DNA of 64,000 bases from a bacterium (GTDB taxonomy: Bacteria > SZUA-182 > DTGQ01), in the NCBI GenBank assembly GCA_040752695.1, contig JBFMGO010000006.1:35568-99567 (forward strand), given 5' to 3'. Of the stretch, positions 39,283 through 62,198 are shown piece by piece. The number at the start of each line of letters is the position of its first letter. Position 1 is the stretch's first letter. A program made the position numbers and the translations under genes. The notes under the pieces are model-generated. The model was not told the DNA's origin and made no database searches. It was given only the letters and a program-made list of their open reading frames with translations.

Positions 39283-39954
39283 TTGAAAAAGATTGCCAGT
39301 CTTTCGATACATATGTTTTCTACCTTCATGTTCATGTTTATGTTTCTATCTATGCCTATGGTTACGCTTTCATGTTTTGCACAAGGAACAGAGCTTGCAC
39401 AAGAAGCAGAGCTTGCAGAAAGAGCAGAACTTGCGCAAGGAGCAGATCTTGCAGAAGAGGCAGTATGCCCTGATAAAACATTCATCTGTCCTTTGGGGGA
39501 TGAAATTTCGATACGCTTATGCTGGGATTGGGATATTTTAAGCTGCCAGATGTGCAGTTTCATAGAAGATGAAGTAGATGAAAAATGCGAACATCCCAAT
39601 TGCTCTGAAGAGTGGCTAGACCGTTCGGACGGGTGCAGCGCTCCGGTATTTTCCGAAGAAATGACAGAAATATTTGGAGATGCCTGTTACATACATGACC
39701 TTTGTTATTCTTCGCCTGGCCAGGCCAAATCTGACTGTGACAGAGAATTTCTTTCCAACATGCTGCAAGTATGCAGTTTTCCCGGAGTTCCTAATATGAT
39801 AGGGGGAGAGACATGTCAAACTGCTGCCCAGATTGCTTACAGAGCCGTTGTCGAGTTTGCCCAAAGTTATTACGATAAGGATCAGGTATGGGTAGAAGAT
39901 CACTGTTATGATGGTCCTTGGGAAGAAGATATATGCTCTGATTCTGATTTATGA
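39283..39954 (+). CDS. Secreted Cys-rich phospholipase A2-like protein
   Basis: Signal peptide; DGCSAP...F..ACYIHDLCY...K.DCD.EF..NM...C sPLA2 His-Asp signature. Confidence 0.7.
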   Translation: MKKIASLSIHMFSTFMFMFMFLSMPMVTLSCFAQGTELAQEAELAERAELAQGADLAEEAVCPDKTFICPLGDEISIRLCWDWDILSCQMCSFIEDEVDEKCEHPNCSEEWLDRSDGCSAPVFSEEMTEIFGDACYIHDLCYSSPGQAKSDCDREFLSNMLQVCSFPGVPNMIGGETCQTAAQIAYRAVVEFAQSYYDKDQVWVEDHCYDGPWEEDICSDSDL

Positions 39955-43400: not shown

Positions 43401-43868
43401 AAAACCCTGCCTTTCCACTTCTTCAAGTCCCAGGGTACGGCAAAGCTCCTCTTTGGTCCTGGCGCTGACCATCATATCAACCAGGGCTTTGTTTTGCACG
43501 ATACTGCTGATTCGGGAAAGGATCTTTAAATGAGTCTCGCTTTCAGCCAGGGGAGTGATAAAAAGGATGACAAGGTATACAGGCTTTCCATCCGGGGAAT
43601 GAAAATCTATTCCATGCTGCGAGATGCCTACAAAAATCATCGGCTCTTTTAAATCCTCGATCCGGGCGTGAGGAATGGCTACACCCCCGCCAAGGCCGGT
43701 GGATTGCGTTCTTTCCCTTTCCAAAACCCGGTGGAGGATTTCTTTCTTATGCTGAATATTCCTGTAAGGATAGGTAGAGTCTATGATTTCTGGAATTGCC
43801 TCCTCGGCAGTACCGGATTTTAGGTCTGGATTTACCAGACATTTATCGAACAATGAAGAAATTTTCAT
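40479..43868 (-). CDS. PTS EIIA domain fused to a type II (IIC-like) cation-transporting P-type ATPase
   Basis: EIIA: RERTQSTGLGGGVAIPHAR; ATPase: PADGR, SGES, NVPEGL, DKTGTLT, KGAP, DPPR, MITGD, TGDGVNDAPALKKADIGVAMG. Confidence 0.93.
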   Translation of the reverse strand: MKISSLFDKCLVNPDLKSGTAEEAIPEIIDSTYPYRNIQHKKEILHRVLERERTQSTGLGGGVAIPHARIEDLKEPMIFVGISQHGIDFHSPDGKPVYLVILFITPLAESETHLKILSRISSIVQNKALVDMMVSARTKEELCRTLGLEEVERQGFLNLTRNEIFHEIGTTEEGLSAEEAKSRLKEYGRNTLKKIRKIPLVIRLLSNFSNLLAILMWVGSVLSFLVGMPEVGWAIIAVIFLNGIFAFWQEFKAEKAIEALKDLIPSYARVIRNGEEEKVLSSDVVPGDVAIFEEGDNIPADGRLIEAHELRVDNSIFSGESRPGYKMAEPCLNGRNFIWTEMPNLVFAGTSVVSGNGKAVIISTGMDTEVGRIAYLTQTVKEELSPLQKQINRLAKIISLIAIGGGLFFFLIGRLTAAMSLTASAIFAIGIIIANVPEGLLPTVTLSLAVAVQRMARRHALVKKLSSVETLGSTSVICTDKTGTLTANQINVTKIWLSGQVIDVTGIGYEPKGTFLLQGQSLSPGGHASESFPGHAPESFPGHAPGSCPETPPDLSSGPSPGSPKSPHAPSADHAPSAEFFKRKDVDLMMKICVLCNTSKLVPPTKEGRYWSIIGDPTEGALLVLAAKAGFDIEQDRRVFPLVKRFPFESVRKRMSSINEMKDGTLYALVKGAPREILDLSSRIMLDQDIVALTPAGRAEIDTRIDHFASEGLRVLAIAFRRLSAAEAAASNAETVERDLVFIGLTAMYDPPRPEVTEAISLCRRAGVRVVMITGDYGITARAIARQVGMITSESAEIITGTQLSLMSDEQLKDRISSREVIFARVNPEHKLRIVGAFKDLGNVVAVTGDGVNDAPALKKADIGVAMGIRGTDVAKEAAEMILTDDNFASIVAAIEEGRAVFDNAKKFMTYIFAHLVPEIVPFVFYALFHIPVPITVMQILAIDLGTETLPALALGTEKPEPGIMDLPPRPQKRGIVDAMVIFRGYIFLGLLAAAAVLAAYFLILSTGGWKLGMQLEPNDTVFANPLHLKAVTMIFAGIVVIQIANVFACRSEKYSIFKIGFSTNKLILWGIIFEVIFIAALVYIPPLQRIFNTTALTWNDWGLLAAFMVIIFTLEELRKWTTRRKWPD

Positions 43869-44040: not shown

Positions 44041-44238
44041 CAAAAACAGGCCAAGAGCTTTGCTTAATATGCAGGCGATTGCCGCTAGCCAAAAAGGGGA
44101 GTGGAGGATGCCTTTTATCAGGGGCGGATGGGGGTACCTTTTGTGGAGGTAATAGCATTGAGTCAGCAAGGTAGAGACAGCAAAGGTAAAGCAGGAAGGT
44201 TGAGACAGCAAAGGCAAGGCAGGAAGGAGCAAGGATGA

Positions 44239-45753
44239 ATGTCACAATCCATAGTTATTGATCCTTTAACCCGAATTGAAGGGCATCTGAAAATAAAAAT
44301 TGAAGTCGAATCAGGGCGGGTTGCCCGGGCATTCAGTTCAGGCGAGATGTTTCGTGGATTCGAGCAGTTTCTCGTTGGCCGCGATCCTTTGGATGCTCAG
44401 CAGATTACCCAGAGGATTTGCGGAGTCTGTCCCGTCTCACACGGTGTAGCCTCCATTTTGGCCCAGGATAATGCCTATGGAGTTGCACTTCCTCGAAATG
44501 GCCGCCTTTTGCGAAACCTGATCCAGGGGGCTAATTATATCCAGTCACACATTCTCCACTTTTACCATCTTGCGGCCCTGGATTTTATCGATATCACTGC
44601 CATCCTCCAGTATCAGGGGAGGGACCGGGCATTACTCGACCTGAAGGCATGGGCCAAATCCGGGGGCAATCTTCTCTATCCTGCAGCTCCCTTTCTTCCC
44701 CGCTACAGCGGGGATTACCTGAAAGACACCGAGTTCAACATCGGTGCCATTCACCATTATCTGGAGGCTCTGGAGATGCGGCGTCTGGCTCACGAGGTTG
44801 TGGCGCTCTTTGGAGGGAAGGTCCCCCATGTGGCCAGTCTGGTGCCTGGCGGAGTCACGGAAAGGGTGACGATTGACAAAATGGCCGCCTGTTCGTGGAA
44901 GCTCAAAAAACTCCGGGAATTCATCGATTATACCTACCTGCCTGATGTGGCTGCCGTAGCCAGGGCGTTTCCCGCCTACTTTCAGGTTGGCCGGGGGTGT
45001 GGAAATCTCCTGGCCTATGGTGTTTTCCCGGAATCGGATCAGAATGGCGGATCTCTCCTTTTTCCTGCCGGTGTGGTTTTGGCCGGGAAACTTGAACCTT
45101 TTGACCAAAGCAAAATTACCGAGGATGTCAAATATTCCTATTTTGGTTCGGCCTCCTCCGGGCTCCATCCGGCCAGAGGTGAAACGGAGGTTTATTTCCC
45201 GAAAGCGCAAGCCTACTCCTGGCTGAAAGCCCCCCGGTATCAAGGACAGGTCATGGAGGTTGGTCCCCTGGCCCGGATCATGGCGGCGTATCTAACGGGG
45301 AAAAATTCTCAGGTCGTCAGTTTGACCAATACTCTTTTAGCGGATCTGGCCAGAAAGCCGGATGATCTTTTTTCCGTTTTGGGCCGCCATGCAGCAAGGG
45401 CTATCGAATGCAAGGTAGTAGCCGACCGGTGCAGTGCATGGCTGGAAGAGCTTCAGCCTGATCGACCCGCGTTCCAGGACTACGATTTGCCGAAGGAAGC
45501 ATCTGGTGCCGGTCTGACCGAGGCTCCGCGGGGAGCCCTTGGACACTGGCTGGAAATCGAGGATTATAAGATTAAACGATATCAATGTGTAGTGCCAACT
45601 ACCTGGAATTGTTCGCCAAGAGACGGGAATGGAAACCCTGGTGCGTTGGAGCATGCCCTTCAAGGGACCTCAATCAAGGATCAGGAAAACCCGATCGAGG
45701 CAGCCAGAATAGTCAGATCGTTCGATCCCTGTCTGGCCTGCGCGGTCCATTGA
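44239..45753 (+). CDS. [NiFe] hydrogenase large subunit (group 1a-like), no C-terminal extension
   Basis: DPLTRIEGH, L1 QRICGVCPVSH, YSWLKAPRY, EAPRGALGHW, L2 RSFDPCLACAVH-stop. Confidence 0.96.
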   Translation: MSQSIVIDPLTRIEGHLKIKIEVESGRVARAFSSGEMFRGFEQFLVGRDPLDAQQITQRICGVCPVSHGVASILAQDNAYGVALPRNGRLLRNLIQGANYIQSHILHFYHLAALDFIDITAILQYQGRDRALLDLKAWAKSGGNLLYPAAPFLPRYSGDYLKDTEFNIGAIHHYLEALEMRRLAHEVVALFGGKVPHVASLVPGGVTERVTIDKMAACSWKLKKLREFIDYTYLPDVAAVARAFPAYFQVGRGCGNLLAYGVFPESDQNGGSLLFPAGVVLAGKLEPFDQSKITEDVKYSYFGSASSGLHPARGETEVYFPKAQAYSWLKAPRYQGQVMEVGPLARIMAAYLTGKNSQVVSLTNTLLADLARKPDDLFSVLGRHAARAIECKVVADRCSAWLEELQPDRPAFQDYDLPKEASGAGLTEAPRGALGHWLEIEDYKIKRYQCVVPTTWNCSPRDGNGNPGALEHALQGTSIKDQENPIEAARIVRSFDPCLACAVH

Positions 45754-45851
45754 ACGTGCGTGGTCGATTGAAGCTGCCCGGTCCATTGAATCTTCGCAGC
45801 CCGTCGATCCTGCACGGCCCATTGATCCTGGCCGGTTCATTGATGCAAGCC
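45744..45851 (+). repeat. 6 x 18-bp degenerate repeat derived from the hydrogenase 3' end
   Basis: GGTCCATTGAACGTGCGT / GGTCGATTGAAGCTGCCC / GGTCCATTGAATCTTCGC ... Confidence 0.7.
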
Positions 45852-45937
45852 AATTAACATAAGCCAGAGCATCAGCCAAAGCATAAGCAGATGCTGAAGC
45901 CGATTGATGGAGGCAAATCAGAGGGAGAGTACAAAGG

Positions 45938-46867
45938 ATGGCTAGAGTAACCAGAAGAAAATTTCTGCACTATTGTGGAAGTCTGGCTGCGATCCTGGGA
46001 TTGGGACCGTCAGCCGTACCGGCTATTTGCCAGGCTCTTGATCGGATGGCGGCTGGCCGGGCGCCTCTTTTATGGCTGCAAGGGCAAAGTTGCTCTGGAT
46101 GTTCGGTGTCTTTATTAAATTCAACCGATCCAGGTCCTGCCCAGATTCTGACCTATTATATTTCACTTGTTTTCCATCCTACTCTTTCTGCCGCTACCGG
46201 TCATACCTGTCTTGATATCATCAATTCCACCGTGAATAAGGGTGGATACATTCTGATCGTGGAGGGAAGCGTTCCGACACGGATTCCCGCGGCCTGCATG
46301 GTCGGTGAAGAGCCGATGGACAAGCTGGTGATCCGGGCGGCCCGCAAGGCAAGTGCTGTGGTCGCGCTGGGAACCTGCGCTTCTTTTGGCGGCATTCCGG
46401 CTGCTGAAAATAATCCTACCGGCGCAATGGGAGTGCCCGAATTCCTGAGCCAGATCTCCACACCTGTCATTTCCCTGCCCGGATGCCCGCCCCACCCTGA
46501 TTGGCTGATCGGCACCCTGGTCCATGTCCTGAAGTTCGGCCTGCCGGCTTTGGATGAATCGGGAAGGCCGGCCATGTTTTATGGCAAGGTACTCCACGAC
46601 CAGTGTCCGCGCTTTGCCGACTATGAGCGTGAAAAATTTGCGAAAACCCTGGCGGACGATGGATGCCTGTTTCGCCTTGGTTGTATGGGGCCGAATGCTC
46701 ATGCTGATTGCAGCCTGAGGCTGTGGAATTCAAGAACCAGTTTCTGCATTAAGGCCGGAGCTCCCTGCATTGGCTGCACCAGCCCCGAGTTTGCGGCTAA
46801 GGCTTCCTTTCCTTTTTACCGGAAGAGAGAACTCTTGCCCCAGCCGGTCAAGGAGGACAACCCATGA
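45938..46867 (+). CDS. [NiFe] hydrogenase small subunit, Tat-exported, no membrane anchor
   Basis: Tat motif TRRKFL; CSGCS, GTCA, PGCPPHP, HDQC, GCLFRLGC, C..RLWN...FCIKAGAPCIGC. Confidence 0.96.
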   Translation: MARVTRRKFLHYCGSLAAILGLGPSAVPAICQALDRMAAGRAPLLWLQGQSCSGCSVSLLNSTDPGPAQILTYYISLVFHPTLSAATGHTCLDIINSTVNKGGYILIVEGSVPTRIPAACMVGEEPMDKLVIRAARKASAVVALGTCASFGGIPAAENNPTGAMGVPEFLSQISTPVISLPGCPPHPDWLIGTLVHVLKFGLPALDESGRPAMFYGKVLHDQCPRFADYEREKFAKTLADDGCLFRLGCMGPNAHADCSLRLWNSRTSFCIKAGAPCIGCTSPEFAAKASFPFYRKRELLPQPVKEDNP

Positions 46868-48552
46868 GCATGAATATCATGAAATTCAATGTTTACACCA
46901 AGTTGACCCTGGCACTGATGACCGGTCTGGGTATAGTCGTGGGAATTGCGCAACTGGTGCAATATCACTATACTTCTTCGGGAGTCGGCGGCATCATTCA
47001 GCGCGATTTGGAGTCCATGCAGGAGATTTCCCGGAAGAATATTTCACAGTGGAAGGTTAAAGAGGAGGAAAATGCCCTCAACCTTTTCTCTTCCATCAGC
47101 CACGCCGTGGCCGGCTCACTTGAGCGTGGGGAGATGGCCAAATTTACCGCACTTCTGGAAAAACAAAAAGGGGTAAAAGGATTAATCGATTTTTCCCTCT
47201 TTGATCGCCAGGGGAAGGTATCTCATTCATCAGACTCGCGTCTTCTCGATGGAACTGTGCCGAAAGAAATCCAAAAGCAACTGTACACCGGAAAGAAACG
47301 CCTTATCCAGCATACCGCAGAGTCTATCGTGATCTATGAGCCACAGATCATAAAACCTGACTGCGTTCGCTGTCACACCGACTGGCAGCTCAATAATGTG
47401 GGAGGAATAATCCGCATGAGTTATTCAACCCAGGCGCTCAGGGAAGCGGAAGAGCAGAATATGCATATGTTCACTCAAGCCCGCCAAAAGGCACAGGCAA
47501 CCCTGGCTGACTTACGGAAAAATATATTGCTCAGCGCCCTTTTGACTCTGGTCTCGATTTGGCTGGCGTTATTTATCCTTATGCAGATAATGACCCGGCA
47601 GATTCTTATCAAACCGCTCAACCGGATTATCCACTGTCTCACCGACTGTATGGGCCAGATTGCCTCTGCCTCACAGGGAACCTTTATTTCCAGCCAGAAA
47701 TTGGCCGAGGATGCGGCAGAACAGGCAAGCTCGCTGCAGGAAACCTCCGCTTCTCTGGAGGAAATGACTTCCATGACCAATCAGAATGCTCAAAATGCTC
47801 AGCAGGCACAATTCCTGGTCAATGAAGCCGTAAACTCCATCAAAAAGGTAAAATCCTCTCTGGATGATGTGAACAGCTCCATGCACGAAATTGTGCAGGC
47901 AGGCGCCCAAACTCTTGGTATTGTCAAAACCATTGACGAGATTGCCTTTCAAACCAACCTCCTTGCTCTCAATGCCGCAGTCGAGGCGGCCAGAGCAGGG
48001 GATGCCGGAGTCAGCTTTGCCGTGGTAGCCGGAGAGGTTCGCGATCTGGCCCTGCGGGCAGGCGATGCGGCCAAGAATACAGCGGGGTTGATCGGATCTA
48101 TTGTAGAAAAAATCAAAAAGGGCAATGAACTGGTTAATTCCACTCAGATGGCTTTCCTTGAGGTGACCAGCAAGTCGGAACAGACCGGGACAATCATTCA
48201 GGAAATTGCTGTTGCCGGAAAGGAGCAGGCGAAAGGAATCGATCTGATCAGTTCGGCAACTCTCCAAATGGATAAAGTTACCCAGGGGAACGCAGATAGT
48301 GCGGAAAAAAATGCCTCTACCAGCAGGCAGTTGAATCTGCAAGTGGAAGAAATGCAGGAAATCGTTCAGGAGCTTATCTATCTTAATGATGGTCGCGGGC
48401 TTAATGATGATCTCAGTCTTAATGATGGTCTCAGGGTAAAGAGCCAATTTCCGAAGGAGAACAAAAAGCGATTCTCATTTGATAGGTGCAGGAAAAACCA
48501 TGCGCAACGGAAAACATCCGCTCTTGCCGAGGGGGAATCCCCTGTCACTTAA
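46864..48552 (+). CDS. Methyl-accepting chemotaxis protein with periplasmic heme-c (CxxCH) sensor
   Basis: Two TMs flanking a domain with PDCVRCH; MCP tip [24 protein letters not shown] overlap with the small subunit. Confidence 0.93.
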   Translation: MSMNIMKFNVYTKLTLALMTGLGIVVGIAQLVQYHYTSSGVGGIIQRDLESMQEISRKNISQWKVKEEENALNLFSSISHAVAGSLERGEMAKFTALLEKQKGVKGLIDFSLFDRQGKVSHSSDSRLLDGTVPKEIQKQLYTGKKRLIQHTAESIVIYEPQIIKPDCVRCHTDWQLNNVGGIIRMSYSTQALREAEEQNMHMFTQARQKAQATLADLRKNILLSALLTLVSIWLALFILMQIMTRQILIKPLNRIIHCLTDCMGQIASASQGTFISSQKLAEDAAEQASSLQETSASLEEMTSMTNQNAQNAQQAQFLVNEAVNSIKKVKSSLDDVNSSMHEIVQAGAQTLGIVKTIDEIAFQTNLLALNAAVEAARAGDAGVSFAVVAGEVRDLALRAGDAAKNTAGLIGSIVEKIKKGNELVNSTQMAFLEVTSKSEQTGTIIQEIAVAGKEQAKGIDLISSATLQMDKVTQGNADSAEKNASTSRQLNLQVEEMQEIVQELIYLNDGRGLNDDLSLNDGLRVKSQFPKENKKRFSFDRCRKNHAQRKTSALAEGESPVT

Positions 48553-48703
48553 ATACATAACTGAGAATACATAAATAATTGCCCACAGAGCCAGAGATTG
48601 ACTATTTAAAGCCTCGTTGCGGTAACTCATGAGATTTAGATTTAATGGATCATGAGGGGTGAATTATTATGGAATATCCAGTGTATTGCATAGGGGAGGT
48701 TTG

Positions 48704-49951
48704 ATGGAAAAAATACTTATCATGGAAGATAGTCGATCGATTGCCAATGCTATTAAGGATAAAATATCCAGAAGCAATTTCTTCGATTGTGATATTGTTT
48801 CAACCTTAGACGAAGCGAAACGTAAAATTGAGAGTAGTACAGAAAAATATTTCCTGGCTGTTCTTGGCTTGAACCTTCCTGATGCTCAATATGATGAAAT
48901 TGTTGACTATATCCTCTCCCAGAACATTTCTCCTATTGTATTTACGTCGGATTACAGTGATGAAATCCGTGAACGAATTATGTCGAAAAAGGTGATAGAT
49001 TATATCATTAAAAGAGACGAACAATCAATAGATTATCTTATTTACATCATTGAGAGGGTATATAAAAACCAGTTTGTTAAAGTCATGGTCGTGGATGACT
49101 CTCATGTTTCCAGACAATATCTTATGAATATCCTGAAGATACAGAAATTCATAGTGTTAGAAGCCAAAAGCGGATTTGAAGCTCTCTTCCTGTTGGTACA
49201 AAATAAAGATATCAAGCTGATAATAACTGACTATATGATGAATAAGCTGGATGGTTTCGAGTTAACCCGAAAAATCAGGAAGCATTATTCCCTAAGACAG
49301 CTTGCCATCATCGGAATCTCAGCATACGGTTCGGGGCTTCTATCAATAAAGTTTTTGAAAAACGGTGCGAACGATTTTGTTATAAAACCATTTGTAGAAG
49401 AAGAGCTTCTTCTGCGAGTCAGGCAAAACATCGAGATCCTGGAACAATTGGACACTTATCAGAGATTATCTCATATTGATTATCTTACTCAATTGTATAA
49501 CCGCTGTTTTTTTTTTGAAATAGGTGGTAAGATTTTTGAAAACGCTAAAAGAAAAAATTTTGATATTGCCACGGCCATGCTTGATATCGACCATTTTAAA
49601 TCAGTCAATGATATGTATGGACATGATATCGGTGACACAGCTCTTAAGCATGTCTCTCAAATTCTATCAAAAACCTTGAGATCCGCTGATATTATTTCCC
49701 GATATGGAGGAGAAGAATTTTGTATTTTAGCAATTAACCTGAAAAAAGAAAATGCTTTTGAAGTTTTTGACAGGCTTCGTTTAAGTATTGAACGGTCAAA
49801 GCTCAAATTAAAAGATAAAGAAATATCCATATCTGTTTCTATCGGTGTAACAACACGGATTTTGGGTTCTCTTGAGAAAAATATAAAATATGCTGATGAA
49901 CTCCTTTATAAGGCCAAACAGCAAGGGCGTAACTGTATAGTTGTAGATTAA
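48704..49951 (+). CDS. REC-REC-GGDEF diguanylate cyclase
   Basis: DIDHFKSVNDMYGH, RxxD I-site (RSAD), RYGGEEF; REC1 has Gly in place of the phospho-Asp (VLGLNLP), REC2 is intact (IITDY); ATG 48704 after GGAGG. Confidence 0.92.
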   Translation: MEKILIMEDSRSIANAIKDKISRSNFFDCDIVSTLDEAKRKIESSTEKYFLAVLGLNLPDAQYDEIVDYILSQNISPIVFTSDYSDEIRERIMSKKVIDYIIKRDEQSIDYLIYIIERVYKNQFVKVMVVDDSHVSRQYLMNILKIQKFIVLEAKSGFEALFLLVQNKDIKLIITDYMMNKLDGFELTRKIRKHYSLRQLAIIGISAYGSGLLSIKFLKNGANDFVIKPFVEEELLLRVRQNIEILEQLDTYQRLSHIDYLTQLYNRCFFFEIGGKIFENAKRKNFDIATAMLDIDHFKSVNDMYGHDIGDTALKHVSQILSKTLRSADIISRYGGEEFCILAINLKKENAFEVFDRLRLSIERSKLKLKDKEISISVSIGVTTRILGSLEKNIKYADELLYKAKQQGRNCIVVD

Positions 49952-50258
49952 ACGTCCATCACGAGAACCTGTACTTTTGACGTTGTGTATCCCTGCTCAT
50001 TTCTTTTTGGCTCAACTATGGCCAAGGATCTACTCAACCAAGCGCCTTGATGTCTCATTGTGCTGATACCCCAGCCAGGTTTGTGAAGAAAGGAAGCGGG
50101 AGGGGCGTAAATTCAGTTATTACACCAAGATGACTGAAATGAAGATCATCGGTACACAAGCAGTTTCGCCTTTAGTCCAAACGGATTGTTTTTCGCATTT
50201 TAAGAGTGAAAGGGCACCAGGGGGACCCATAGTTTATGGTTTGTTTTGCTCTTGCACC

Positions 50259-50290
50259 AGACCGATTTCTCCTAAAGTCCCTGTCGATAA
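50259..50290 (+). promoter_or_regulatory. Conserved 32-bp upstream motif, copy 2
   Basis: AGACCGATTTCTCC-TAAAG-TCCCTGTCGATAA, 40 nt upstream of the Cache MCP start. Confidence 0.6.
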
Positions 50291-50330
50291 TGAAAGCAAA
50301 GAGAAAAAGGAAATGATGAAGGAGGATGGA

Positions 50331-52496
50331 ATGGGATTCAGGCATATGAGCTTGCGGGTAAAATTGCTGACCATAGGTTTGCTTTTATCGGCTTTTCCCC
50401 TGATGATGGTACTGGCGATTGTACTGCATCAAAACCGGCTGATGATTAAAGCCTCATCTGAAGAATGTTTAACCCTGGCGCTTTCAGGTCTTGACCCGGT
50501 CGTACGCGGCGTTTACGCCATGTGTGCAAGTCAGGAGGGTATCTCACAGCAGGTAGTGAATTCTTCCCTTACTATGGCGCGCCGGGTTTTAAACAATACG
50601 GGCCAGGTCAGCTTCTCGCCTGATGAGACCTGTTCCTGGAACGCGATTAATCAATATACCAAAGAAGCACTGCCTATCGAACTGCCGAAAATGATGGTGG
50701 GCGATATCTGGCTCGGTCAGAACAAGGATATCAATACTCCTTCGGCCGTAGTGGATGAAGTCAGGATGATGTCAGAGGTTACCTCTACCATCTTTCAGCG
50801 GATGGACAGGGATGGAAACATGCTTCGCGTGTGCACCAACGTCCAGAAATTAGATGGGACCAGGGCCATAGGAACTTACATTCCAGCCATCAATCCGGAT
50901 GGAAAGCAGAATCCGGTCATTGCCGCCGTTTTAGACGGCAAAACCTATCGGGGCAGAGCGTACGTAGTCAATGCCTGGTATATTACCGCTTATGAGCCCA
51001 TCTTTGATTCATCCCGGCATGTCATCGGTGTCCTTTACGTAGGAGTTCCTGAAGAAAGTATTACTGCCGGATTAAAAGAGGAAATCAAGAAGCTGAAATT
51101 CGGTAAGACAGGTTCTGTATATGTCCTTGACTCGAAAGGGAATTCGGTTGTTTCCCACGATGGCCGCAGCGATGGAGACGGCAAGGATGCCAGCGGAGTG
51201 CAAGATGGTGCGGCCAATCGGAACCTGCAACAGATCTGCTCCAGTGTACTGGCCCTTCAGCCGGGAAGCATAAGCGAGCAGCGGTATTCCTGGAGAAGTT
51301 CCGGAGATCGGGTGGAACATATGAAAATCGCCAAGGTTGTATTTTTTCAGCCCTGGGATTGGGTCATCTTTGCCGAAGCGAGTGAGGATGAGATTTTGGA
51401 ATCGCAGAAAAAAGTGATGGCTATTGGCCGTCAGGGTGAGATGTGGCTGATCCTCACCGTTGTTCTTACCGTATTGGTTACTATCCTGATTTGGATTTTT
51501 ACGGCTCATGGGATAGTGGGTAAGCTCGTCTACGTGGTGCAGCAGTTGACTCACACTGTCTCCCAGGCATTCCAGACTTCCTGCCAGGTTGCTGAGTCAA
51601 GCCTGGACATGGCCCATGGCGCAAGTGATCAGGCCGCCAGCCTGGAAGAAATCTCCAGCGGTCTTGAGGAGATGTCCTCAATGACGAAGCAAAATGCAGA
51701 TTCTGTCAGGCGGGCTACTGTTATGTCAAATTCTGCTCGCGATGCCACACAGAAAAGCATGGAGGCCATGGCGAGAATGTCCACGGCCATTTTAAAAATC
51801 AAGGATTCATCGGATGAGACCTCCAAGATCATTAAGACCATAGATGAAATTGCCTTTCAGACAAATCTTTTGGCTCTTAATGCCGCGGTTGAGGCTGCTC
51901 ATGCCGGTGATCTTGGCAGGGGCTTTGCGGTTGTGGCTGAAGAGGTGCGGAACCTGGCGCAGCGAAGTGCCGAAGCAGCTAAAAATACCGCCATACTTAT
52001 TGATGAGTCACGGGAAAACACCCAAAACGGGGTTATTGCATCCAGGGAGGTGGAAGAGATTCTCGGGCAAATCGGCGATGCAATTCAACAGGTTACGCAA
52101 CTCATTACTGAAGTCTCGACAGCCAGTGATGCACAGGCCAAGGGCGTTGAACAGATTAATGGTGCCATGATCCAGATAGACCAGGTAATGCAAAAGAACA
52201 TTACCAATGCCGATCAATCCGCTTCAGCGAGCGAGAAACTGTCTGCTCAGGCCGGCAGGCTTACCGATGCTGTCAATGTCTTGAGGAACATGGTGAGAGG
52301 GAATGGGAATAGTTCCGGCGAGGTGGGCATCAGGGGACTGGTCGCGGCATATTCGATTGACAATACAAAAGAGGGTAGTGGCTTACAGAGTCAGGCCCAT
52401 ACATTGACACATCAAAGCATGGGCAAGCTAAAAGATCGAAATAACCTCCCCCTTGTCAGCTACTCATTCGGCAAGAAAAAAGATGATTCCCGGTAA
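50331..52496 (+). CDS. MCP with Cache_3/Cache_2-type periplasmic domain
   Basis: TIFQR...RVCTNV...GTRAIGTYIP, YRGRAYVVNAWYITAYEPI, PWDWVI; MCP signalling domain; start after AAGGAGG. Confidence 0.92.
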   Translation: MGFRHMSLRVKLLTIGLLLSAFPLMMVLAIVLHQNRLMIKASSEECLTLALSGLDPVVRGVYAMCASQEGISQQVVNSSLTMARRVLNNTGQVSFSPDETCSWNAINQYTKEALPIELPKMMVGDIWLGQNKDINTPSAVVDEVRMMSEVTSTIFQRMDRDGNMLRVCTNVQKLDGTRAIGTYIPAINPDGKQNPVIAAVLDGKTYRGRAYVVNAWYITAYEPIFDSSRHVIGVLYVGVPEESITAGLKEEIKKLKFGKTGSVYVLDSKGNSVVSHDGRSDGDGKDASGVQDGAANRNLQQICSSVLALQPGSISEQRYSWRSSGDRVEHMKIAKVVFFQPWDWVIFAEASEDEILESQKKVMAIGRQGEMWLILTVVLTVLVTILIWIFTAHGIVGKLVYVVQQLTHTVSQAFQTSCQVAESSLDMAHGASDQAASLEEISSGLEEMSSMTKQNADSVRRATVMSNSARDATQKSMEAMARMSTAILKIKDSSDETSKIIKTIDEIAFQTNLLALNAAVEAAHAGDLGRGFAVVAEEVRNLAQRSAEAAKNTAILIDESRENTQNGVIASREVEEILGQIGDAIQQVTQLITEVSTASDAQAKGVEQINGAMIQIDQVMQKNITNADQSASASEKLSAQAGRLTDAVNVLRNMVRGNGNSSGEVGIRGLVAAYSIDNTKEGSGLQSQAHTLTHQSMGKLKDRNNLPLVSYSFGKKKDDSR

Positions 52497-52664
52497 CTGG
52501 CTCACATCGAACAGTGACCGGCAACTGGCTCACATCGATTACTGAATTGAAAGGAACCGGATTCCTCTTCTCACGATAAACGGACTCCCCCTTTGCTCTT
52601 GGGGAGGCGGGGGGAAAAGTGCAAACTTAATCAGAATCCCCCAAGATGAGGAAAGGAGGAGATC

Positions 52665-53042
52665 GTGTCAATGATCAGCGGTGGGACTCAGGAAAGCAGT
52701 TGTCTCAGCTTAGAAGGGGAGGTTACCATCAATGAAGCGGCCCGACTCAAGGAGACTCTGCTTGGGCTTCTTTCTACTCAGGAACCCGTAACTATTAATC
52801 TGGAAGGGATTACCAGGATTGATACTTCAGGACTCCAGCTTTTGTATGCAGCTCACCAGACTGCTATCCACCAGGGTAAAAATTTTTCGCTGGTAAACCC
52901 GTCACTTTCATTCATGCAGGCAGCCAAACTGGCAGGGCTTTTCTTTCAATCGCCTGAGGGGTACCTGGAAGGGTGCCTCTGGCAGGGAGCCCCAAGTGAT
53001 CCTCGCAGCCCTGGAGGGGCGGCAGATGGAGGCGAAAAGTAA
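52665..53042 (+). CDS. STAS-domain protein of the che cluster
   Basis: LEGEVTI, IDTSGLQLL. Confidence 0.85.
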   Translation: MSMISGGTQESSCLSLEGEVTINEAARLKETLLGLLSTQEPVTINLEGITRIDTSGLQLLYAAHQTAIHQGKNFSLVNPSLSFMQAAKLAGLFFQSPEGYLEGCLWQGAPSDPRSPGGAADGGEK

Positions 53043-53422
53043 TGTCGAAAACTATTATGACCGTGGATGACTCCTCCAGTGTACGGCAGATGGTGCGGTT
53101 TACCCTCAATGAGGAGGGATATCAGGTTATCGAAGCGGCCAATGGCCAGGATGCTCTCGATAAAATGGGTCCGGTGAGCGCTGCTGGCGGTCGCGTAGAT
53201 ATGGTGATCACGGACCTTAACATGCCCGTTATGAATGGAATTGAATTGATACGGGAGATCCGTAAGAGGTCGGATTCCCGGTTCATCCCTGTCATTATGC
53301 TCACTACCGAATCTCAGAATGAAAAGAAGATGGAGGGGAAGGCAGCAGGAGCAACCGGCTGGATTGTAAAACCATTTCGTCCGGATCAACTGCTTGCGGT
53401 AGTCAAAAAAGTACTGCCATGA
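53042..53422 (+). CDS. cheY: Chemotaxis response regulator CheY
   Basis: TVDDSSSVR, ITDLNMP, MLTTES, AGATGWIVKPF. Confidence 0.95.
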   Translation: MSKTIMTVDDSSSVRQMVRFTLNEEGYQVIEAANGQDALDKMGPVSAAGGRVDMVITDLNMPVMNGIELIREIRKRSDSRFIPVIMLTTESQNEKKMEGKAAGATGWIVKPFRPDQLLAVVKKVLP

Positions 53423-53438
53423 GGAGAGGGATAAAGGA

Positions 53439-55787
53439 ATGTCAGCTATGGATAGAGAAGATAAGTATGCAGAGGCATTTCGTGAGGAAGCAGCGGAACT
53501 GCTCTCCGATTTGGAAGAGGTAATTCTTTCGCTGGAAAATAATCCGAAAGACCAGGAACTTATCAACCGCCTTTTCCGGGTCATGCATACCATAAAAGGT
53601 TCTGGCGCCATGTTTGGCTTTCAGAAAATAGCGGATTTTGCTCATCACCTGGAAACCATGCTGGACCTGGTCCGGACCGGCACCCTTTCCATAACCGCAG
53701 AACTCAGCGACCTCCTCCTTCGATCGAGGGACCAGATTCAGATTATGCTGTGCGCCCAAGAGAGCGAATCAGAAGAGAGTGCGGACGAGGTGAACCGGAT
53801 TCTGGCCGGACTCAAGAAACTGCAAGATCAGTTGTCACCTGCAAAGCCTTTTGATCATGCAAAGCCTGGTGATCGTGGAAAATCCACTGGTTCAGCAAAG
53901 CCAGTCGATTCAGCAAAGTCTGGTGATTCAGTAAAGTCTGGTGATTCTGCAAGATCTGGTGAAGGTTCTCTTCTTGAGTTGTTGTCTCAAGAGAAGAACC
54001 AGGAACAGGAGCAGTGCTTTCCCAAAGAGCAACGCGCTCCTTTCGAGCAGTGTAATGACCAGCAGCAGCGTACTCCTTCTTCTTTGCAGCAGGCTACTTA
54101 CCGGCTTCGGATCAAATTAAACCAGAAGGTCATGGCCTCGGGACTCGATCCCTTATGTTTACTTAAGGATTTGCGATCTATAGGCGAATGTGCCATATCC
54201 GCGCAGACAGATCAGGTCCCCTGGCTTGATGAGATGGACCCGGAGGCATGCTACTTCTATTGGGATGCCATCATAAGCACCAGTGCCAGCCGGGAGGAAA
54301 TAGAGGGGATTTTTCTCTTCGTACAGGATGAAAGCCAGATCTCCATTACAAAACTAAGCGACGAATGTGCAGATGAAGAAGAACAAAAAAAAATAGGAGA
54401 GATTCTGGTTGAGCGGGGCGATATCACAAAGGAGCAAGTCCGCAAGATTCTATCCAGACAGAAGCGAGCCGGAGAACTGATGGTCGAGGCGGGCATTGTC
54501 AGCCGGGGCAAAGTTGAATCCGCCCTGATCGAGCAGAAGATGGTCCGGCAACTGCGAGACAATCAACTGGGCAACGATACGATCCGGGTTTCCACGAAAA
54601 AGCTGGACCGGCTGATTAATCTGGTGGGGGAGATGGTCATCACCCAGGCCCAGCTCAGTCAGACTTCGGCGCACTATCAGGACACGGATATTTTGGCACC
54701 GGTTGAGAACATAGAGCGGCTGACCAATGAACTGCGCGATTGTGCTCTCAACATCCGGATGCTCCCTATCGAAACTACATTCGGCAAGTTCCGCAGACTG
54801 GTGCACGATCTTTCGGCCAGTCTGGGAAAGGAGGCTGAACTCGTAACCGAAGGAGGAGAAACGGAACTGGACAAGACCGTGATCGAGCGCATGCACGACC
54901 CTTTGGTCCACCTGATCCGAAACAGCATCGACCACGGCCTCGAGTCCCCCGATGGCAGGAAAAAAGCGGGCAAGCCTGCCTGCGGTACCATTCGCCTGTC
55001 AGCTGGCCAGTCTGGTGGGGAGGTGATTATCAGTATCCAGGATGATGGTGCGGGCCTTTGCAGGGAAAGGATTTTGGCCAAGGGGATCGAGCAGGGCCTG
55101 GTCAGTGAATCGGACAATCTGACCGATTCCCAGATTTTCAATCTGATCTTCATGCCCGGATTTTCTACGGCCAGCAAGGTTACCGACGTTTCAGGCCGGG
55201 GAGTAGGTATGGATGTGGTCAGGCGGGAGATTAGCAAACTGCGGGGGTCAGTGGACATAAAGAGTCAACAGGGGAAGGGAACAACTACGTCCATTCACCT
55301 CCCTTTGACGCTGGCTATTATTGAGGGGCTTTTGGTGGCTGTCGAATCAAGCCATTATGTCATTCCCCTCACCTTCGTTCAGGAGTGCGTGGAGCTCACC
55401 TCTCGTGAGGTAATCAATGCTCATGGCCGGCATGTCATTAATCTGCGGGGAGAGCTTATACCCTACATCCGGCTGCGGGAAATCTTTTCTCTTGACGACG
55501 ACAGTTCAATGACCGCTGCCCCGGCAGCCTCGGGCAAAGGGACGCGGCCTTCAATCGAATATGTGGTTGTGGCTATGGTCGAAGGAAAAAGGATCGGGCT
55601 GGTGACCGATACCATTATCGGAGATTATCAGGCAGTGATCAAGTCGCTGGGCAAGGTCTATGAACATACCGAGGGGCTTTCCGGTGCCACGATTCTGGGA
55701 GATGGGACTATAGCCCTTATTGTGGATGTCCGGCAGTTGATCGAGTGCGCTCACCGTCAGGAGAAAGAAATGCTGGTCTGTGCGTGA
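53439..55787 (+). CDS. cheA: Chemotaxis histidine kinase CheA
   Basis: Hpt FRVMHTIKG, LDRLINLVGE, HLIRNSIDHG, GFSTA..SGRGVGMDVV, LPLTLAII, CheW-like P5. Confidence 0.97.
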   Translation: MSAMDREDKYAEAFREEAAELLSDLEEVILSLENNPKDQELINRLFRVMHTIKGSGAMFGFQKIADFAHHLETMLDLVRTGTLSITAELSDLLLRSRDQIQIMLCAQESESEESADEVNRILAGLKKLQDQLSPAKPFDHAKPGDRGKSTGSAKPVDSAKSGDSVKSGDSARSGEGSLLELLSQEKNQEQEQCFPKEQRAPFEQCNDQQQRTPSSLQQATYRLRIKLNQKVMASGLDPLCLLKDLRSIGECAISAQTDQVPWLDEMDPEACYFYWDAIISTSASREEIEGIFLFVQDESQISITKLSDECADEEEQKKIGEILVERGDITKEQVRKILSRQKRAGELMVEAGIVSRGKVESALIEQKMVRQLRDNQLGNDTIRVSTKKLDRLINLVGEMVITQAQLSQTSAHYQDTDILAPVENIERLTNELRDCALNIRMLPIETTFGKFRRLVHDLSASLGKEAELVTEGGETELDKTVIERMHDPLVHLIRNSIDHGLESPDGRKKAGKPACGTIRLSAGQSGGEVIISIQDDGAGLCRERILAKGIEQGLVSESDNLTDSQIFNLIFMPGFSTASKVTDVSGRGVGMDVVRREISKLRGSVDIKSQQGKGTTTSIHLPLTLAIIEGLLVAVESSHYVIPLTFVQECVELTSREVINAHGRHVINLRGELIPYIRLREIFSLDDDSSMTAAPAASGKGTRPSIEYVVVAMVEGKRIGLVTDTIIGDYQAVIKSLGKVYEHTEGLSGATILGDGTIALIVDVRQLIECAHRQEKEMLVCA

Positions 55788-55942
55788 GAGGGCAGATGCG
55801 AAAAAAAATATCAGGCAGAATATTGGAATACCAGAATATCAGGACGCCTGATGGTAATCATGCACATAGTAAGCAATATGCACGTGGGAAAAGATAGGTT
55901 TTTCACCAGACAAGGGTGAGAGAGAAACCGGGGGGGAGAAAA

Positions 55943-58900
55943 ATGCAGATAAAAATAGGTCATAAGCTTGGTATCGGTTTTGCTATTCCTTTGCTGTGCC
56001 TGGTTATTGTTGGTGTGTGGGTTTATTTGGCTAATCTTGGCTCGGAAGGAAAAGCCATCCATACCAGGGACGAGGTTGTAGCTTTTCAGACTGCTGCTCA
56101 GGAGATGAAATCGGACGTTATCCAGGTCCAGCAGTGGCTTACCGATATTTCAGCCACCCGGGGCCTGGATGGACTGGACGACGGATTCAAAAAGGCTGAA
56201 GAGCATGCCCAATCTTTTCTGGCCGGATTGAAAACATTCAGGGAGATGTATACCAAAGAAGGTAATCACGAAGGACTCGATACCCTTCAGAAGTTGAATA
56301 CCCACTTTGATTCGTACTACACCAGCGGCAAAAAAATGGCCAAAGCCTATGTCGATGAAGGTCCTGCCAAGGGAAATCATCTGATGGAAGAGTTCGACAA
56401 TGCAGCCAGCGCGCTGTGGGGTTCCCTCAATCTCCTGGTAGATGAACATACGCAGGAATTGCATGACAATATGAATGGAATAGTCAAATCGATCGAGCAT
56501 GTAAACTGGCTGATTTTTATCATTGGATGCATTGCCCTGGTGATCACAGTCCTGGCCAGTGTGACTATATCCCGCGGCATTACCCGGCCGGTTAATCACC
56601 TGCGGGAGATAGCCGAGCAACTGGCCAAGGGCAACACTGCCGTTTCCATTCATGTGGATAACCAGGATGAGACAGGTGAATTGGCTGAATCATTGAGAAA
56701 AATGGTGAATCAGCAGACTGGTCTTTTGAAAGAAATCGATTTGTTATCCACGGCAGCGGTTGAGGGAAGACTCGATACCCGTGGTAATGCAGCAAAGTTC
56801 GGTGGCGATTATGGCAAGGTTATTCAGGGCATAAACAATACCCTGGATGCAGTGATCGGGCCATTGAATGTGGCTGCCGAGTACATTGCCAGAATCAGCC
56901 AGGGGGAAATACCGGAGGAGATCACGGAGGAGTATAAGGGTGACTTCAACGAGATCAAGAATAATCTCAATGTCATGATTGACCGGGTCGGCGCCCAGAT
57001 CATGAATCTTACCAACATCCCTACTCCGATCATGACCATAGACAAGGACTTTGGTATCACCTATATGAATACTGCCGGTGCTAAACTGGTGGGGATGACT
57101 GCCAAACAGTGCGAGGGGAAAAAATGTTATGATCTGTTCAAGACTCCCCACTGCCATACGGCCGAGTGCCGTTGCCTTCAGGCCATGCAGCAGAACGTGG
57201 TGGTTACCGGCGAAACCATTGCCCATCCAAGGGGATTGAATATTCCCATCCAATACACCGGCGCTCCAGTCAAGGACAGGAATGGCAATATCGTCGGTGC
57301 CCTGGAATACGTGACAGACATGACGGCCATTAAAGAGGCTATGGAAGATGCCAAAGAGAAGGTCAATTATCTCAACAACATTCCTACTCCGGTCATGGTA
57401 GTGGACAAGGAAATGAAGATCCGGTTTATGAATCCTGCAGGTGCGGCAGCCGTAGGCAGGACACCTCAGGCATGTCTTGGGCTCAAATGTAATACCCTCT
57501 TCAATACGCGCCATTGCAATACCGCCAACTGTCAGGTGGAAAAAGCCATGCGGGAGGGCAGCGTTTCCACCGGCAACACTATAGCCAAGCTCCCTTCCGG
57601 AGAGCTTCCGATCCGCTACACCGGGTCTCCGATCAAGGATGCTGAAGGAAATGTTATCGGAGGTCTGGAATATGTAGTCGATATCTCGGAAGAGCACAAG
57701 GCAGTGGCTGAAGTGGAGCACCTGGTTGAGGCTGCTGTTGCCGGTAAACTCGACGCACGAGGCAATCCGGATAACTACACGATCGTCGGCTTCAGGAATG
57801 TCATCAAGGGAATCAATGACACCCTGGAGGCGATTACCGGACCCCTCAAGGTAGCGGCAGAGTATGTGGCCAGAATCAGCAAGGGTGATTCGCCGGATCA
57901 GATCACGGAAAAGTGGAAAGGGGACTTTAACGAGCTGAAAGATAATCTGAATATGCTTATTCAGTCCATGGATGAGATTACCCGGCTTGCACAGGAGATC
58001 GCGTCCGGGAACCTTACGGTGGAGATCAGGGAGCGCTCCGGCCGTGACAATCTGATGAAGGCACTGTCGAGCATGGTGAGCAAACTTATTGAAGTGGTGG
58101 CCAATGTTCAGACGGCCGCAGACCAGGTCGCATCAGGAAGCCAGGCCATGAGCTCCGCCTCAGCCCAAATGTCGCAAGGGGCGAGTGAGCAGGCTGCTTC
58201 TGCCGAACAGGTATCGGCGGCCATGGAGGAGATGGTCGCCAATATCAAGCAGAATGCTGAAAATGCCCAGCAAACCGAAAAAATTGCCTTGAAATCCGCC
58301 AACGATGCCAAAGGAGGCGGCAAGGCTGTAACAGATACCGTCGCTGCCATGAAGGAGATAGCCACCAAGATTTCCATTATCGAGGAAATAGCGCGTCAGA
58401 CAAACCTTCTGGCCCTGAATGCGGCTATCGAGGCGGCACGGGCCGGAGAGTACGGTAAAGGATTTGCCGTCGTGGCCTCTGAAGTTCGCAAACTGGCCGA
58501 GCGCAGTCAGGTGGCGGCGGGAGATATCGGCCAGTTATCCACCAGCAGTGTGGATATAGCTGAAAAGGCAGGTAAGATGCTGGCAACGCTTGTACCGGAT
58601 ATTCAGAAAACTGCCGAGCTGGTGCAGGAAATCAGCGCTGCCAGCAATGAACAAAACAGCGGTGCTGAGCAGATTAACAAGGCAATCCAGCAACTGGAGC
58701 AGGTAATTCAGCAGAACGCGGCATCATCTGAGGAAACGGCCTCGACAACTGAAGAAATAGCCTCGCAGGCCGAACAACTGCAAGGCACCATTGCTTTTTT
58801 CAAGACTGACCGGCGGATGACTGTCGAAACAACCAGAGTCAGGCATCATATGCCCTTGAGCCCTGTTCAAAAGAAATATCCGGCTCATTCACCGATCGGT

Positions 58901-59041
58901 AAAAATACCACTGGAGCAGCCTCGGCAGAGAGGTTGAAATCATCAGGCATTCAGACAGGTCATTCCCTTCATTCGGACGGGAACGGCCATAATGGCCATG
59001 GAGGAGCAGATCCACAGGATAGGGAGTTCGAGTTGATATAG
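55943..59041 (+). CDS. Large MCP: periplasmic helical domain, multiple HAMPs, two PAS domains, signalling domain
   Basis: Two TMs, HAMP, two NIPTP.M..DK PAS repeats, [21 protein letters not shown]-terminal EFELI pentapeptide-like tether. Confidence 0.93.
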
Positions 59042-59131
59042 CTGGTTGGATGCCAGCGGCTGGATGCCGGGTGGAGCAGGATAAAGTGGGGCAGGATACT
59101 ATCGATCGCAGGAGAAGAGGAGGAAAAGGCG

Positions 59132-59662
59132 ATGAGTGAAGGAGCTGTATCTTTGTCCAATCAGTATCTTACCTTTGTATTGGGAGATGAGTTATTCGCG
59201 GCTGAAATTTCCAAGGTTCGGGAGGTCCTGGACTATCCGGCCATTACCAGGGTGCCGTGTATGCCCGATTACCTTCGTGGAGTCATCAATCTGCGTGACA
59301 ACGTGGTCCCTGTCGTTGACATGCGGCTCAAATTTGGCATGTCTTCCACCGAGCGGACCGTGGATACCTGTGTGGTTATTGTTGAAACCGATCTGGATGG
59401 AGGACAGGTTACCATAGGTTGTCTGGCCGATTCGGTGAAAGAGGTTTTGGACCTTCCACAGAATCAAATTGAACCTCCCCTAAAGACTGGCACTGGTCTT
59501 AACACTGAATTTCTGAAAGGAATGGGTAAGCAGGGAGACAAGTTTTTGCTTATTCTCGATATCGATAAGGTACTCTCGGAGAAAGAGCTGCATCTGATAC
59601 AGAGTGGTACAAGCAATACGGCTGTCGATGAGACAACCCAAAAGGATGAGGTGCCTCAATAG
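59132..59662 (+). CDS. cheW: Chemotaxis adaptor CheW
   Basis: QYLTFVL, KVREVL, GVINLR...VPVVD. Confidence 0.95.
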   Translation: MSEGAVSLSNQYLTFVLGDELFAAEISKVREVLDYPAITRVPCMPDYLRGVINLRDNVVPVVDMRLKFGMSSTERTVDTCVVIVETDLDGGQVTIGCLADSVKEVLDLPQNQIEPPLKTGTGLNTEFLKGMGKQGDKFLLILDIDKVLSEKELHLIQSGTSNTAVDETTQKDEVPQ

Positions 59663-59664
59663 AC

Positions 59665-60531
59665 ATGATCGGAGAGGAAAACCCCACAATTACACCGAAA
59701 GACATGTCTGACCGGCTTTACCAGAAATTCAGTCAGCTAATTCATTCTGAGTGTGGCATCAAGCTTCCTCCGATAAAAAAGGTAATGCTCCAGTCAAGGC
59801 TCTTGAAAAGGCTGAAGGCTCTCGATATTTCATCTTTCGAGCAATATTACGACTACCTGACCAGCGGCCTGGGCAAAAGTGACGAGTTGGCTCATGCTCT
59901 CGATGTAGTCAGTACTAACAAGACCGATTTTTTCCGGGAGCCCTTCCATTTTGACTATCTTCATTCCGTGGCTATCCCTGAAATCATCCATTCTCTGTGG
60001 AACAAACCGCGAAGGAAGATTCACCTCTGGAGCGCCGGCTGCTCTTCGGGTGAGGAACCCTACACGCTGGCTATGGTCTTAAGCGACTTTTTGGAAAAAT
60101 ATCCTGAATTTGATTATGATATTTTGAGTACCGATATTTCCCAAAGGGTGCTTTCTCAAGCTCAGCAAGCCATCTACAGCGACAGCATCGTCGCACCGGT
60201 TCCTCACCGCCTGAAAGCGAAATACCTGATGAGGGGCAAGGGAACCCAAAAGGGGAATTGGCGTGTGGTTCCGCAACTGCGGAGCCGAATCCTGATTCGG
60301 CGGCTCAATCTTATGGATGGGCACTTCAACCTGCCAACCCTGATGGACATTATCTTTTGCAGGAATGTAATTATTTACTTCGACAGGCCGACTCAAGTCT
60401 GCCTGTTTCAAAAAATGTATAACTGCCTGGTCCCTGGAGGGTATCTGTTCATTGGCCATTCCGAAACCCTCTATGGAATCAATGATCAGTTTCAGTACAT
60501 AGAGGCAACGATTTATAGAAAGCCGTGGTGA
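59665..60531 (+). CDS. cheR: Chemotaxis methyltransferase CheR
   Basis: TNKTDFFRE, WSAGCSSGEEPYTLAM, DIIFCRNVIIYFD, GHSE. Confidence 0.96.
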   Translation: MIGEENPTITPKDMSDRLYQKFSQLIHSECGIKLPPIKKVMLQSRLLKRLKALDISSFEQYYDYLTSGLGKSDELAHALDVVSTNKTDFFREPFHFDYLHSVAIPEIIHSLWNKPRRKIHLWSAGCSSGEEPYTLAMVLSDFLEKYPEFDYDILSTDISQRVLSQAQQAIYSDSIVAPVPHRLKAKYLMRGKGTQKGNWRVVPQLRSRILIRRLNLMDGHFNLPTLMDIIFCRNVIIYFDRPTQVCLFQKMYNCLVPGGYLFIGHSETLYGINDQFQYIEATIYRKPW

Positions 60532-60625
60532 CGACATAGGGCTATGATGACGATACAGAGCTATGATGACGACACAGAGCCATGATAAAAAAACAGAAAA
60601 GCCATATCGAAGATAGAAGGACATA

Positions 60626-62198
<1,573 letters not shown>

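Follow-up and report, generated by a model that had tools for sequence, protein, structure and literature searches.

A tail-less, exported [NiFe] hydrogenase paired with a haem-c chemoreceptor: a candidate periplasmic H2-sensing unit

Why should a periplasmic hydrogenase share a gene junction with a chemoreceptor? The question is raised by three consecutive genes at positions 44239 to 48552 of a stretch of 64,000 nucleotides (hereafter the window) from contig JBFMGO010000006.1 of a bacterium of the SZUA-182 lineage (GenBank assembly GCA_040752695.1), which encode the large and small subunits of a [NiFe] hydrogenase and a methyl-accepting chemotaxis protein (MCP) with a haem-c motif in its periplasmic domain. 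We consider it very probable that this module is sensory in some form and, with a confidence slightly better than even, we read it as a group-1a-derived periplasmic H2 sensor, in which the enzyme would directly reduce the receptor haem and thereby report H2. The unit is real, conserved and apparently unpublished as a sensory variant of group 1 hydrogenases: in the full-text literature, supplements not covered, we found no published description of a unit of an exported NiFe hydrogenase and a haem-MCP. The elements of the module, with lengths in amino acids (aa), are as follows.

44239..45753, + strand: [NiFe] hydrogenase large subunit, 504 aa; PF00374; group-1a-like
45737..45843, + strand: 18-bp degenerate tandem repeat, 5.9 copies, from the end of the large-subunit gene into the spacer
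45938..46867, + strand: hydrogenase small subunit, 309 aa; PF01058, PF14720; TIGR00391 above cut-off
45950-45967, + strand: twin-arginine translocation (Tat) motif TRRKFL, small subunit aa 5-10
46850-46856 and 46864-46867, + strand: Shine-Dalgarno sequence AAGGAGG plus ATGA overlap, predicted from sequence to couple the small subunit to the receptor
46864..48552, + strand: chemoreceptor (MCP) with two transmembrane (TM) helices, 562 aa; PF00015; no HAMP match
47041..47463, + strand: receptor periplasmic haem-c domain, single Cache/PAS-like (AlphaFold model, Foldseek)
47362-47376, + strand: CVRCH haem motif, receptor aa 167-171

The open reading frames (ORFs), all on the + strand, confirm the order given in a preliminary description of this DNA, with the large subunit ahead of the small one, and likewise the overlap of the small-subunit stop with the MCP start, the ribosome-binding site lying inside the small-subunit gene. 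The translational coupling which that description proposed is retained for the small subunit and the receptor; the genes of the two hydrogenase subunits lie 184 bp apart and are not coupled. This spacer consists in part of the 18-bp tandem repeat, which is probably without function; similar short degenerate arrays lie in gene ends and spacers at 44160-44227, 45858-45888 and 48382-48435, and comparable repeat insertions occur inside several ORFs of the window. Across metagenome loci, counting only spacings from -10 to 200 bp, the small-subunit/receptor junction is a 4-base overlap in 24/59 cases and spans at most 36 bp in 58/59.

The large subunit carries the motifs R59ICGVC and D496PCLACAVH and scores 680 bits against the NF033181 cut-off of 600, whereas it stays below that of the NiFeSe HysA model NF045518 (564 vs 780 bits), as does the small subunit for the HysB-side model NF045520 (302.6 vs 470 bits). 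Its top PDB matches are NiFeSe enzymes, and its third ligand is Cys (TGT codon), not selenocysteine (Sec). From these sequence characters we identify it as a group 1 [NiFe] hydrogenase of 1a-like type. It ends at H504, the final His of the second motif, with no C-terminal extension. Hence, the lack of a maturation protease gene nearby is expected. The tail is absent in 118/119 of the nearest large subunits in a large database, and the catalytic motifs are canonical, CGVC and His being kept in 119/119. One homolog of the large subunit is recorded for Desulfosarcina cetonica. The lack of a tail has also been described for the large subunits of H2-sensing, Coo and Ech enzymes (PMC7294309). In the clade delineated below, the large-subunit stop codons are TGA in 16, TAA in 9 and TAG in 4 members; Sec read-through of TGA is ruled out, as 13 of the 29 use TAA or TAG. 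The marks that we take to be typical of group 2b, a Gln after the first CxxC and an Ile/Phe constriction of the gas channel, were not found: the window enzyme has CGVCPVSH and HFYHL, and only 2/30 clade rows have the Gln.

For the small subunit, motif, hydropathy and Cys pattern agree with the earlier assignment of a Tat signal, no TM anchor and a 4-Cys medial cluster. There is no C-terminal hydrophobic segment (top 19-residue hydropathy 0.86 within the last 60 aa), and the nearest solved chains are NiFeSe small subunits. The Cys and His residues fit a proximal (C52/55/147/183), a distal (H220/C223/243/249) and a 4-Cys medial site (C258/270/277/280), that is, three predicted [4Fe-4S] clusters, with ligands assigned at the sequence level by a pattern that we presume to apply and by alignment to 1cc1. 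As a sensory mark the 4-Cys medial cluster is ruled out, being widespread both in the clade (29/30) and in control small subunits (39/43). A loop PRFxDYERExFA after the distal His is conserved in the clade and lost in a receptor-less paralog; it is only a candidate docking site, because 1cc1 holds a similar stretch. Modelled as a single chain, the small subunit reached a mediocre score (predicted local distance difference test, pLDDT, 63.7), and this model was not used; a predicted complex of small subunit, haem and sensor domain (score 0.04; mark 0.32) was used neither way.

The receptor has TM helices at aa 14-32 and 221-239, which flank the CVRCH-bearing domain that the preliminary description took to be periplasmic, and an MCPsignal domain (PF00015, 120 bits vs a cut-off of 34.6). 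The AlphaFold model of the sensor domain (pLDDT 86.9) retrieves GSU0935 (3b42) in Foldseek at rank 2 (E 5e-6) and GSU0582 at rank 14; its match to PF21563 is weak (20.2 vs a cut-off of 27), and PF11845 is not listed among the library matches of the receptor. A conserved Met91 in the motif SLERGEM (codon 47134-47136) is the likely distal haem ligand. Among 150 representatives analysed out of 565 sensor homologs at E 0.001, 129 have both the Met and CXXCH, 13 neither and one the Met only, with 7 unparsed; their outputs are an MCP domain in 115, a hybrid kinase in 3 and a SpoIIE phosphatase in 1, the rest being mostly short. Two Magnetococcales receptors (L038:8706-10847 and L072:8483-10609) carry an additional CXXCH as an insertion within the sensor domain.

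The hydrogenase and its receptor are tied together far beyond the window. Among 77 related loci found from the hydrogenase, 30 have the large-subunit gene before the small, 43 the reverse and 4 are unresolved. The large subunit ends at His in 30/30 of the former and in 0/43 of the latter controls, which instead have a tail 7-21 residues long (37), a stop at a probable Sec codon (5) or a variant motif plus tail (1). A homolog of the window sensor lies downstream in all 28 large-before-small loci with room for it (contig ends truncate the other 2 of the 30): in 27 it follows immediately, and in L065 it comes one gene later as a hybrid kinase; CXXCH is kept in 26 of these 28. The controls have this sensor in 0/43, and any MCP in the locus in 4/43, none with the window-type sensor. 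The 29 full-length large subunits fall into a single clade with the window enzyme (SH-aLRT 98 in a quick IQ-TREE run, made without 4 partial rows and L077, and 99 in FastTree; both trees are free of HydDB reference sequences), whose carriers belong, by record title, to several families of Desulfobacterota and to Magnetococcales, Verrucomicrobiota and Planctomycetota. The preliminary description had staked its reading on orthologs standing beside MCP rather than cytochrome genes and on a conserved order of large subunit, small subunit and CXXCH-bearing MCP, and the survey bears out both.

A reverse scan from the sensor, covering the best 80 of 151 confirmed matches at 78 loci, tests close homologs only, since its query was built from linked sensors. 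It finds a hydrogenase gene adjacent in 65/78 loci (55/64 after 90% clustering), a His end in 48/48 large subunits with a readable end, and CXXCH in 77/78 loci by script and 78/78 by eye, the motif of L083 lying outside the script's window. The 65 linked loci have the order large-small-receptor in 42, small-receptor-large in 8, small-receptor cut by the contig in 13 and another in 2 (L142 uncertain). The placement of the receptor between the subunit genes is hard to ascribe to chance neighbourhood, and the link between hydrogenase and sensor outlasts gene shuffling. Of the 13 unlinked loci, 7 have less than 500 bases upstream, too short for judgement. In L141 (779-6470) a sensor-MCP directly follows an Nqr/Rnf-like cluster, and the 5 kb upstream contain no hydrogenase.

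The two partners also diverge in step. In 50 triplets (57 of 77 passed the filters, 50 after dereplication), distances in the sensor follow those of the large subunit, and likewise those of the small subunit, with a Spearman rho of 0.74, whereas for the signalling domain rho is 0.39 with the large subunit, 0.35 with the small subunit and 0.35 with its own sensor; the resampled differences, sensor minus signalling domain, are 0.18-0.53 and 0.21-0.56. These values point to hydrogenase plus sensor as the stable unit, onto which the output domain is swapped, though gene conversion among MCPs could also depress the rho of the output domain. Thus, the comparative genomics supports well the interpretation of a dedicated sensory unit.

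How might such a unit work? We propose that shared Hyp proteins would load the tail-less large subunit with no protease step, and that the large and small subunits would be exported through Tat as a soluble dimer, as family knowledge suggests, giving a hydrogenase without a cytochrome partner of its own. Its Fe-S chain would hand electrons to the c-type haem of the receptor's Cache domain, so that the haem would follow the H2/H+ couple. By analogy with GSU0582 and GSU0935, the redox change would bind or release the distal Met, and the signal would pass through the membrane and reach the MCP domain and CheA. Flagellar taxis along H2 gradients is the likely output, while the same input may drive a hybrid kinase in some lineages. 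Met60 of GSU0582/0935 is a ligand of the reduced haem and dissociates upon oxidation, with midpoint potentials of -156 and -251 mV (PMC8396549). If these values are borrowed, the haem is computed to be half reduced near 2 nM H2 at -251 mV and near 1 pM at -156 mV; whether the haem would act as a graded H2 sensor or be held reduced for gas sensing depends on the actual potential.

The surroundings of the module also bear on this proposal. The neighbouring genes are:

48659..49951, + strand: REC-REC-GGDEF protein, context outside the conserved unit
50130..62198, + strand: Cache MCP, STAS, cheY, cheA, PAS-MCP, cheW, cheR, cheD and cheB, context

The diguanylate cyclase gene and the full che cluster (STAS-cheY-cheA-MCP-cheW-cheR-cheD-cheB after the first MCP) noted downstream earlier were thus recovered; cheY, cheA, cheW and cheR were named from translations rather than by library scan. 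The cyclase lies outside the conserved unit, because GGDEF matches occur in 0/78 sensor-led loci; CheA, CheW or CheR matches occur in 8/78. The G+C content is 0.39 at 48001-50000 vs 0.52 in the module. The che cluster next to the module may be non-cognate, because the receptor's nearest paralog belongs to a che cluster adjoining flagellar genes on contig C2 and the MCP within the window cluster is 7 residues shorter per arm than the receptor. The MCP classes concerned, 36H and 34H, are our presumptive assignments. A promoter and terminator scan gave counts at chance level (12 vs 8.8 and 6 vs 7.0), and the sequencing runs listed include no RNA data set with the module. A plasmid search returned only relatives of less than 60% identity.

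The flanking ORFs scanned yielded no cytochrome, protease or hyp gene, in keeping with the preliminary description; HypD and three HycI proteases are encoded on other contigs. The host genome (6.05 Mb, 96.6% complete) encodes HypD, TatC, two cytochrome c assembly proteins, FliG, two flagellin-family matches and two cheA genes. It also has two other group 1 hydrogenases with tails and proteases of their own, one on contig C44 ahead of two cytochrome-b-like genes (named by eye) and one on contig C18 ahead of a 7-haem protein, so respiratory uptake has other candidates. A group 3-like large subunit lies at C78:25387-26703, with no HycI match on that contig, and contigs C4, C5, C50 and C83 encode many very large multihaem proteins with up to 28 CXXCH each. 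Among related genomes, the sensor domain is present in 1/5 of the same family and 0/2 of the same genus; two strong matches outside, L079 and L080, have the identical three-gene set. Elsewhere in the window are a P-type cation ATPase fused to an N-terminal phosphotransferase system (PTS) EIIA domain (40479-43868, - strand; PF00359), a Cys-rich secreted protein with a weak, below-cut-off match to group XII secretory phospholipase A2 (39283-39954, + strand), and an ATPase-TPR protein of 1246 aa whose N-terminal part looks CHAT-like by eye and which contains low-complexity repeat insertions (34782-38522, + strand).

Several observations count against direct reduction of the receptor haem as a report of H2, the whole support for which is genomic. 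The host genome is rich in multihaem proteins, which are possible electron acceptors. Absence of the tail is not diagnostic, as the group 3-like large subunit of the same genome also ends at His. Met91 sits about 5 residues beyond Met60 of GSU0935 in the alignment, and Met ligation is therefore only likely. The window receptor has Ser for Gly in the MCP tip motif, whose consensus we take to be GxGF. In two Planctomycetota loci (L045 and L050) the hydrogenase-linked receptors have neither CXXCH nor Met, so the haem is dispensable there. At 6/78 sensor loci, three of them kinase-type, there is no hydrogenase despite at least 1.2 kb upstream, and a clade paralog (L056, twin L058) is followed by a secreted protein rather than a receptor. 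With the large subunit controlled for, small subunit and sensor retain a partial correlation of only 0.11 (25 triplets), which speaks for shared cassette history, not contact. The enrichment of FliG in carrier genomes (16/17 vs 16/28 controls), which favours the proposal, is weakened in that the groups differ in genome size and are kin. Finally, 7/17 carriers, as draft genomes, have no other full-length group 1 match among those listed, so the enzyme may also serve uptake.

Two arrangements outside the main pattern are as follows. The paralog of L056 (3068-5513, - strand) and L058 (3015-6209, - strand) is a divergent tail-less large-small pair within the clade, its small subunit without the clade loop after the distal His, followed by a repeat protein without a Pfam match. 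In Omnitrophota (L007:304-5320 and L010:5017-11496; also L023 and L027, both cut), downstream of a tail-bearing small-large hydrogenase come tatC, a tetrahaem cytochrome and an MCP whose haem Cache domain is GSU0935-like, apparently a second, independent pairing of hydrogenase and haem receptor.

The same evidence can be set against other accounts. The unit could be sensory and yet signal through protein contact, as proposed for HoxBC-HoxJ, or through a small mobile cytochrome, with the haem as a second input. That would suit the receptors of L045 and L050, which retain SLxRGE and stay beside the hydrogenase without a haem, the 13 haem-less forms among the 150 representatives, the differential HoxBC-HoxJ interaction proposed as the route in the known sensor (PMC6978683), and the tetrahaem cytochrome that stands between hydrogenase and haem-MCP in Omnitrophota. 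We nevertheless consider it unlikely, given the retention of CXXCH in nearly all linked and sensor-led loci and the absence of a cytochrome gene inside the unit; moreover, the haem-less forms resemble one another and may be a single derived branch or event. That the enzyme is an ordinary uptake hydrogenase of the periplasm, supplying the cytochrome pool and merely co-regulated with a general redox receptor, strikes us as improbable: the near-universal tight coupling, the 8 loci with the receptor between the subunit genes, the scarcity of any MCP in control loci and the sensor's tracking of the hydrogenase rather than of its own output domain all argue otherwise, even though the catalytic motifs are canonical, group 1a is respiratory according to HydDB, the unit has hyp genes on its flanks in several genomes (L072, L095, L107) and some carriers show no other group 1 enzyme among the matches listed.

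Quite improbable, in our estimate, is a hydrogenase that acts as a charger, keeping the haem ferrous for a receptor that reports an oxidant or a gas (O2, NO or CO), with H2 as a permissive factor only. GSU0582/0935 bind CO and NO with displacement of the Met and DcrA senses redox and O2 (PMC8396549), some Cache-haem domains are NO sensors (PMC12889525), and picomolar H2 would suffice to saturate a haem near -156 mV. However, any periplasmic reductant would then do, a dedicated and conserved hydrogenase seems costly, and the Met is retained throughout the sensor family. We therefore return to the periplasmic H2 sensor, and would give even chances to its broader formulation: an as yet unnamed group 1 [NiFe] subgroup would have moved out of respiration to serve as a periplasmic 'hydrogen electrode' that equilibrates the receptor haem with the H2/H+ couple at the nanomolar H2 of anoxic sediments, the enzyme and Cache domain being an input plugged onto various MCP classes, hybrid kinases and a phosphatase.

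If this is true, bacteria would have a defined receptor for H2 taxis, and a chemoreceptor would be the electron acceptor of an enzyme. Fermenters, sulfate reducers and methanogens exchange H2 as their main currency, and behaviour and model fitting have demonstrated H2 taxis in Methanococcus maripaludis, the consulted part of that work naming no receptor protein. Some annotated periplasmic uptake hydrogenases of Desulfobacterota, Verrucomicrobiota, Planctomycetota and Magnetococcales may then be sensors, which would change metabolic inferences, and an SLxRGEM...CxRCH receptor next to a group 1 large subunit whose last residue is His offers an easy marker.

The closest solved sequences for both subunits are the group 1a structures 5jsu, 4kl8 and 1cc1, which we take to be HysAB of Desulfovibrio vulgaris and Desulfomicrobium baculatum. 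With group 1a [NiFe] and [NiFeSe] enzymes the module shares Tat export, the lack of an anchor and the 4-Cys medial cluster; it differs from [NiFeSe] HysAB in having Cys rather than Sec and in scoring below the HysA cut-offs. Unlike respiratory group 1a enzymes, it has neither a protease-cleaved extension nor the small-before-large order of the 43 controls: its large gene comes first or after the receptor, it forms a separate clade, and its fixed partner is a receptor. The receptor shares with GSU0582/GSU0935, DcrA and Cache_heme (DUF3365/Tll0287) a single Cache/PAS-like fold in which CXXCH precedes the last strand and, with GSU0582/GSU0935, a probable His/Met ligation by analogy, whereas its sensor domain has about 22% identity to GSU0935, its Met at another position and a PF21563 score below cut-off. 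The word hydrogenase is absent from the main text of three haem-Cache papers (PMC8396549, PMC12889525, 10.64898/2026.05.25.727664), while PMC12727194 tabulates 87 MCP genes near NiFe large subunits, its consulted part containing no discussion of them and no haem sensor type. In HydDB, as far as its consulted part goes, group 1 is respiratory, 2b and 2c are the NiFe sensors and only [FeFe] group C2 is MCP-linked. This 'chemotactic (putative)' group (HydDB Table 1) shares the proposed sensing of H2 through methyl-accepting proteins; in contrast to the module, it is an unrelated enzyme class, for which that part names no exported NiFe enzyme or haem-c Cache domain. With group 2c and with HoxBC-HoxJ of Cupriavidus necator (HydDB group 2b) the module has in common a tail-less large subunit and a hydrogenase wired to a signalling protein. 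However, HoxBC is cytoplasmic and controls transcription via a kinase (PMC6978683), whereas the module is group-1-derived, has a Tat signal and pairs with the periplasmic haem domain of a membrane receptor. Of the group 2b characters it has the tail-less large subunit, whereas its Tat motif and group 1 best matches depart from a cytoplasmic, Tat-free enzyme of group 2 sequence. Thus, judged by its sequence, the module would work like a regulatory hydrogenase and yet stands outside group 2b.

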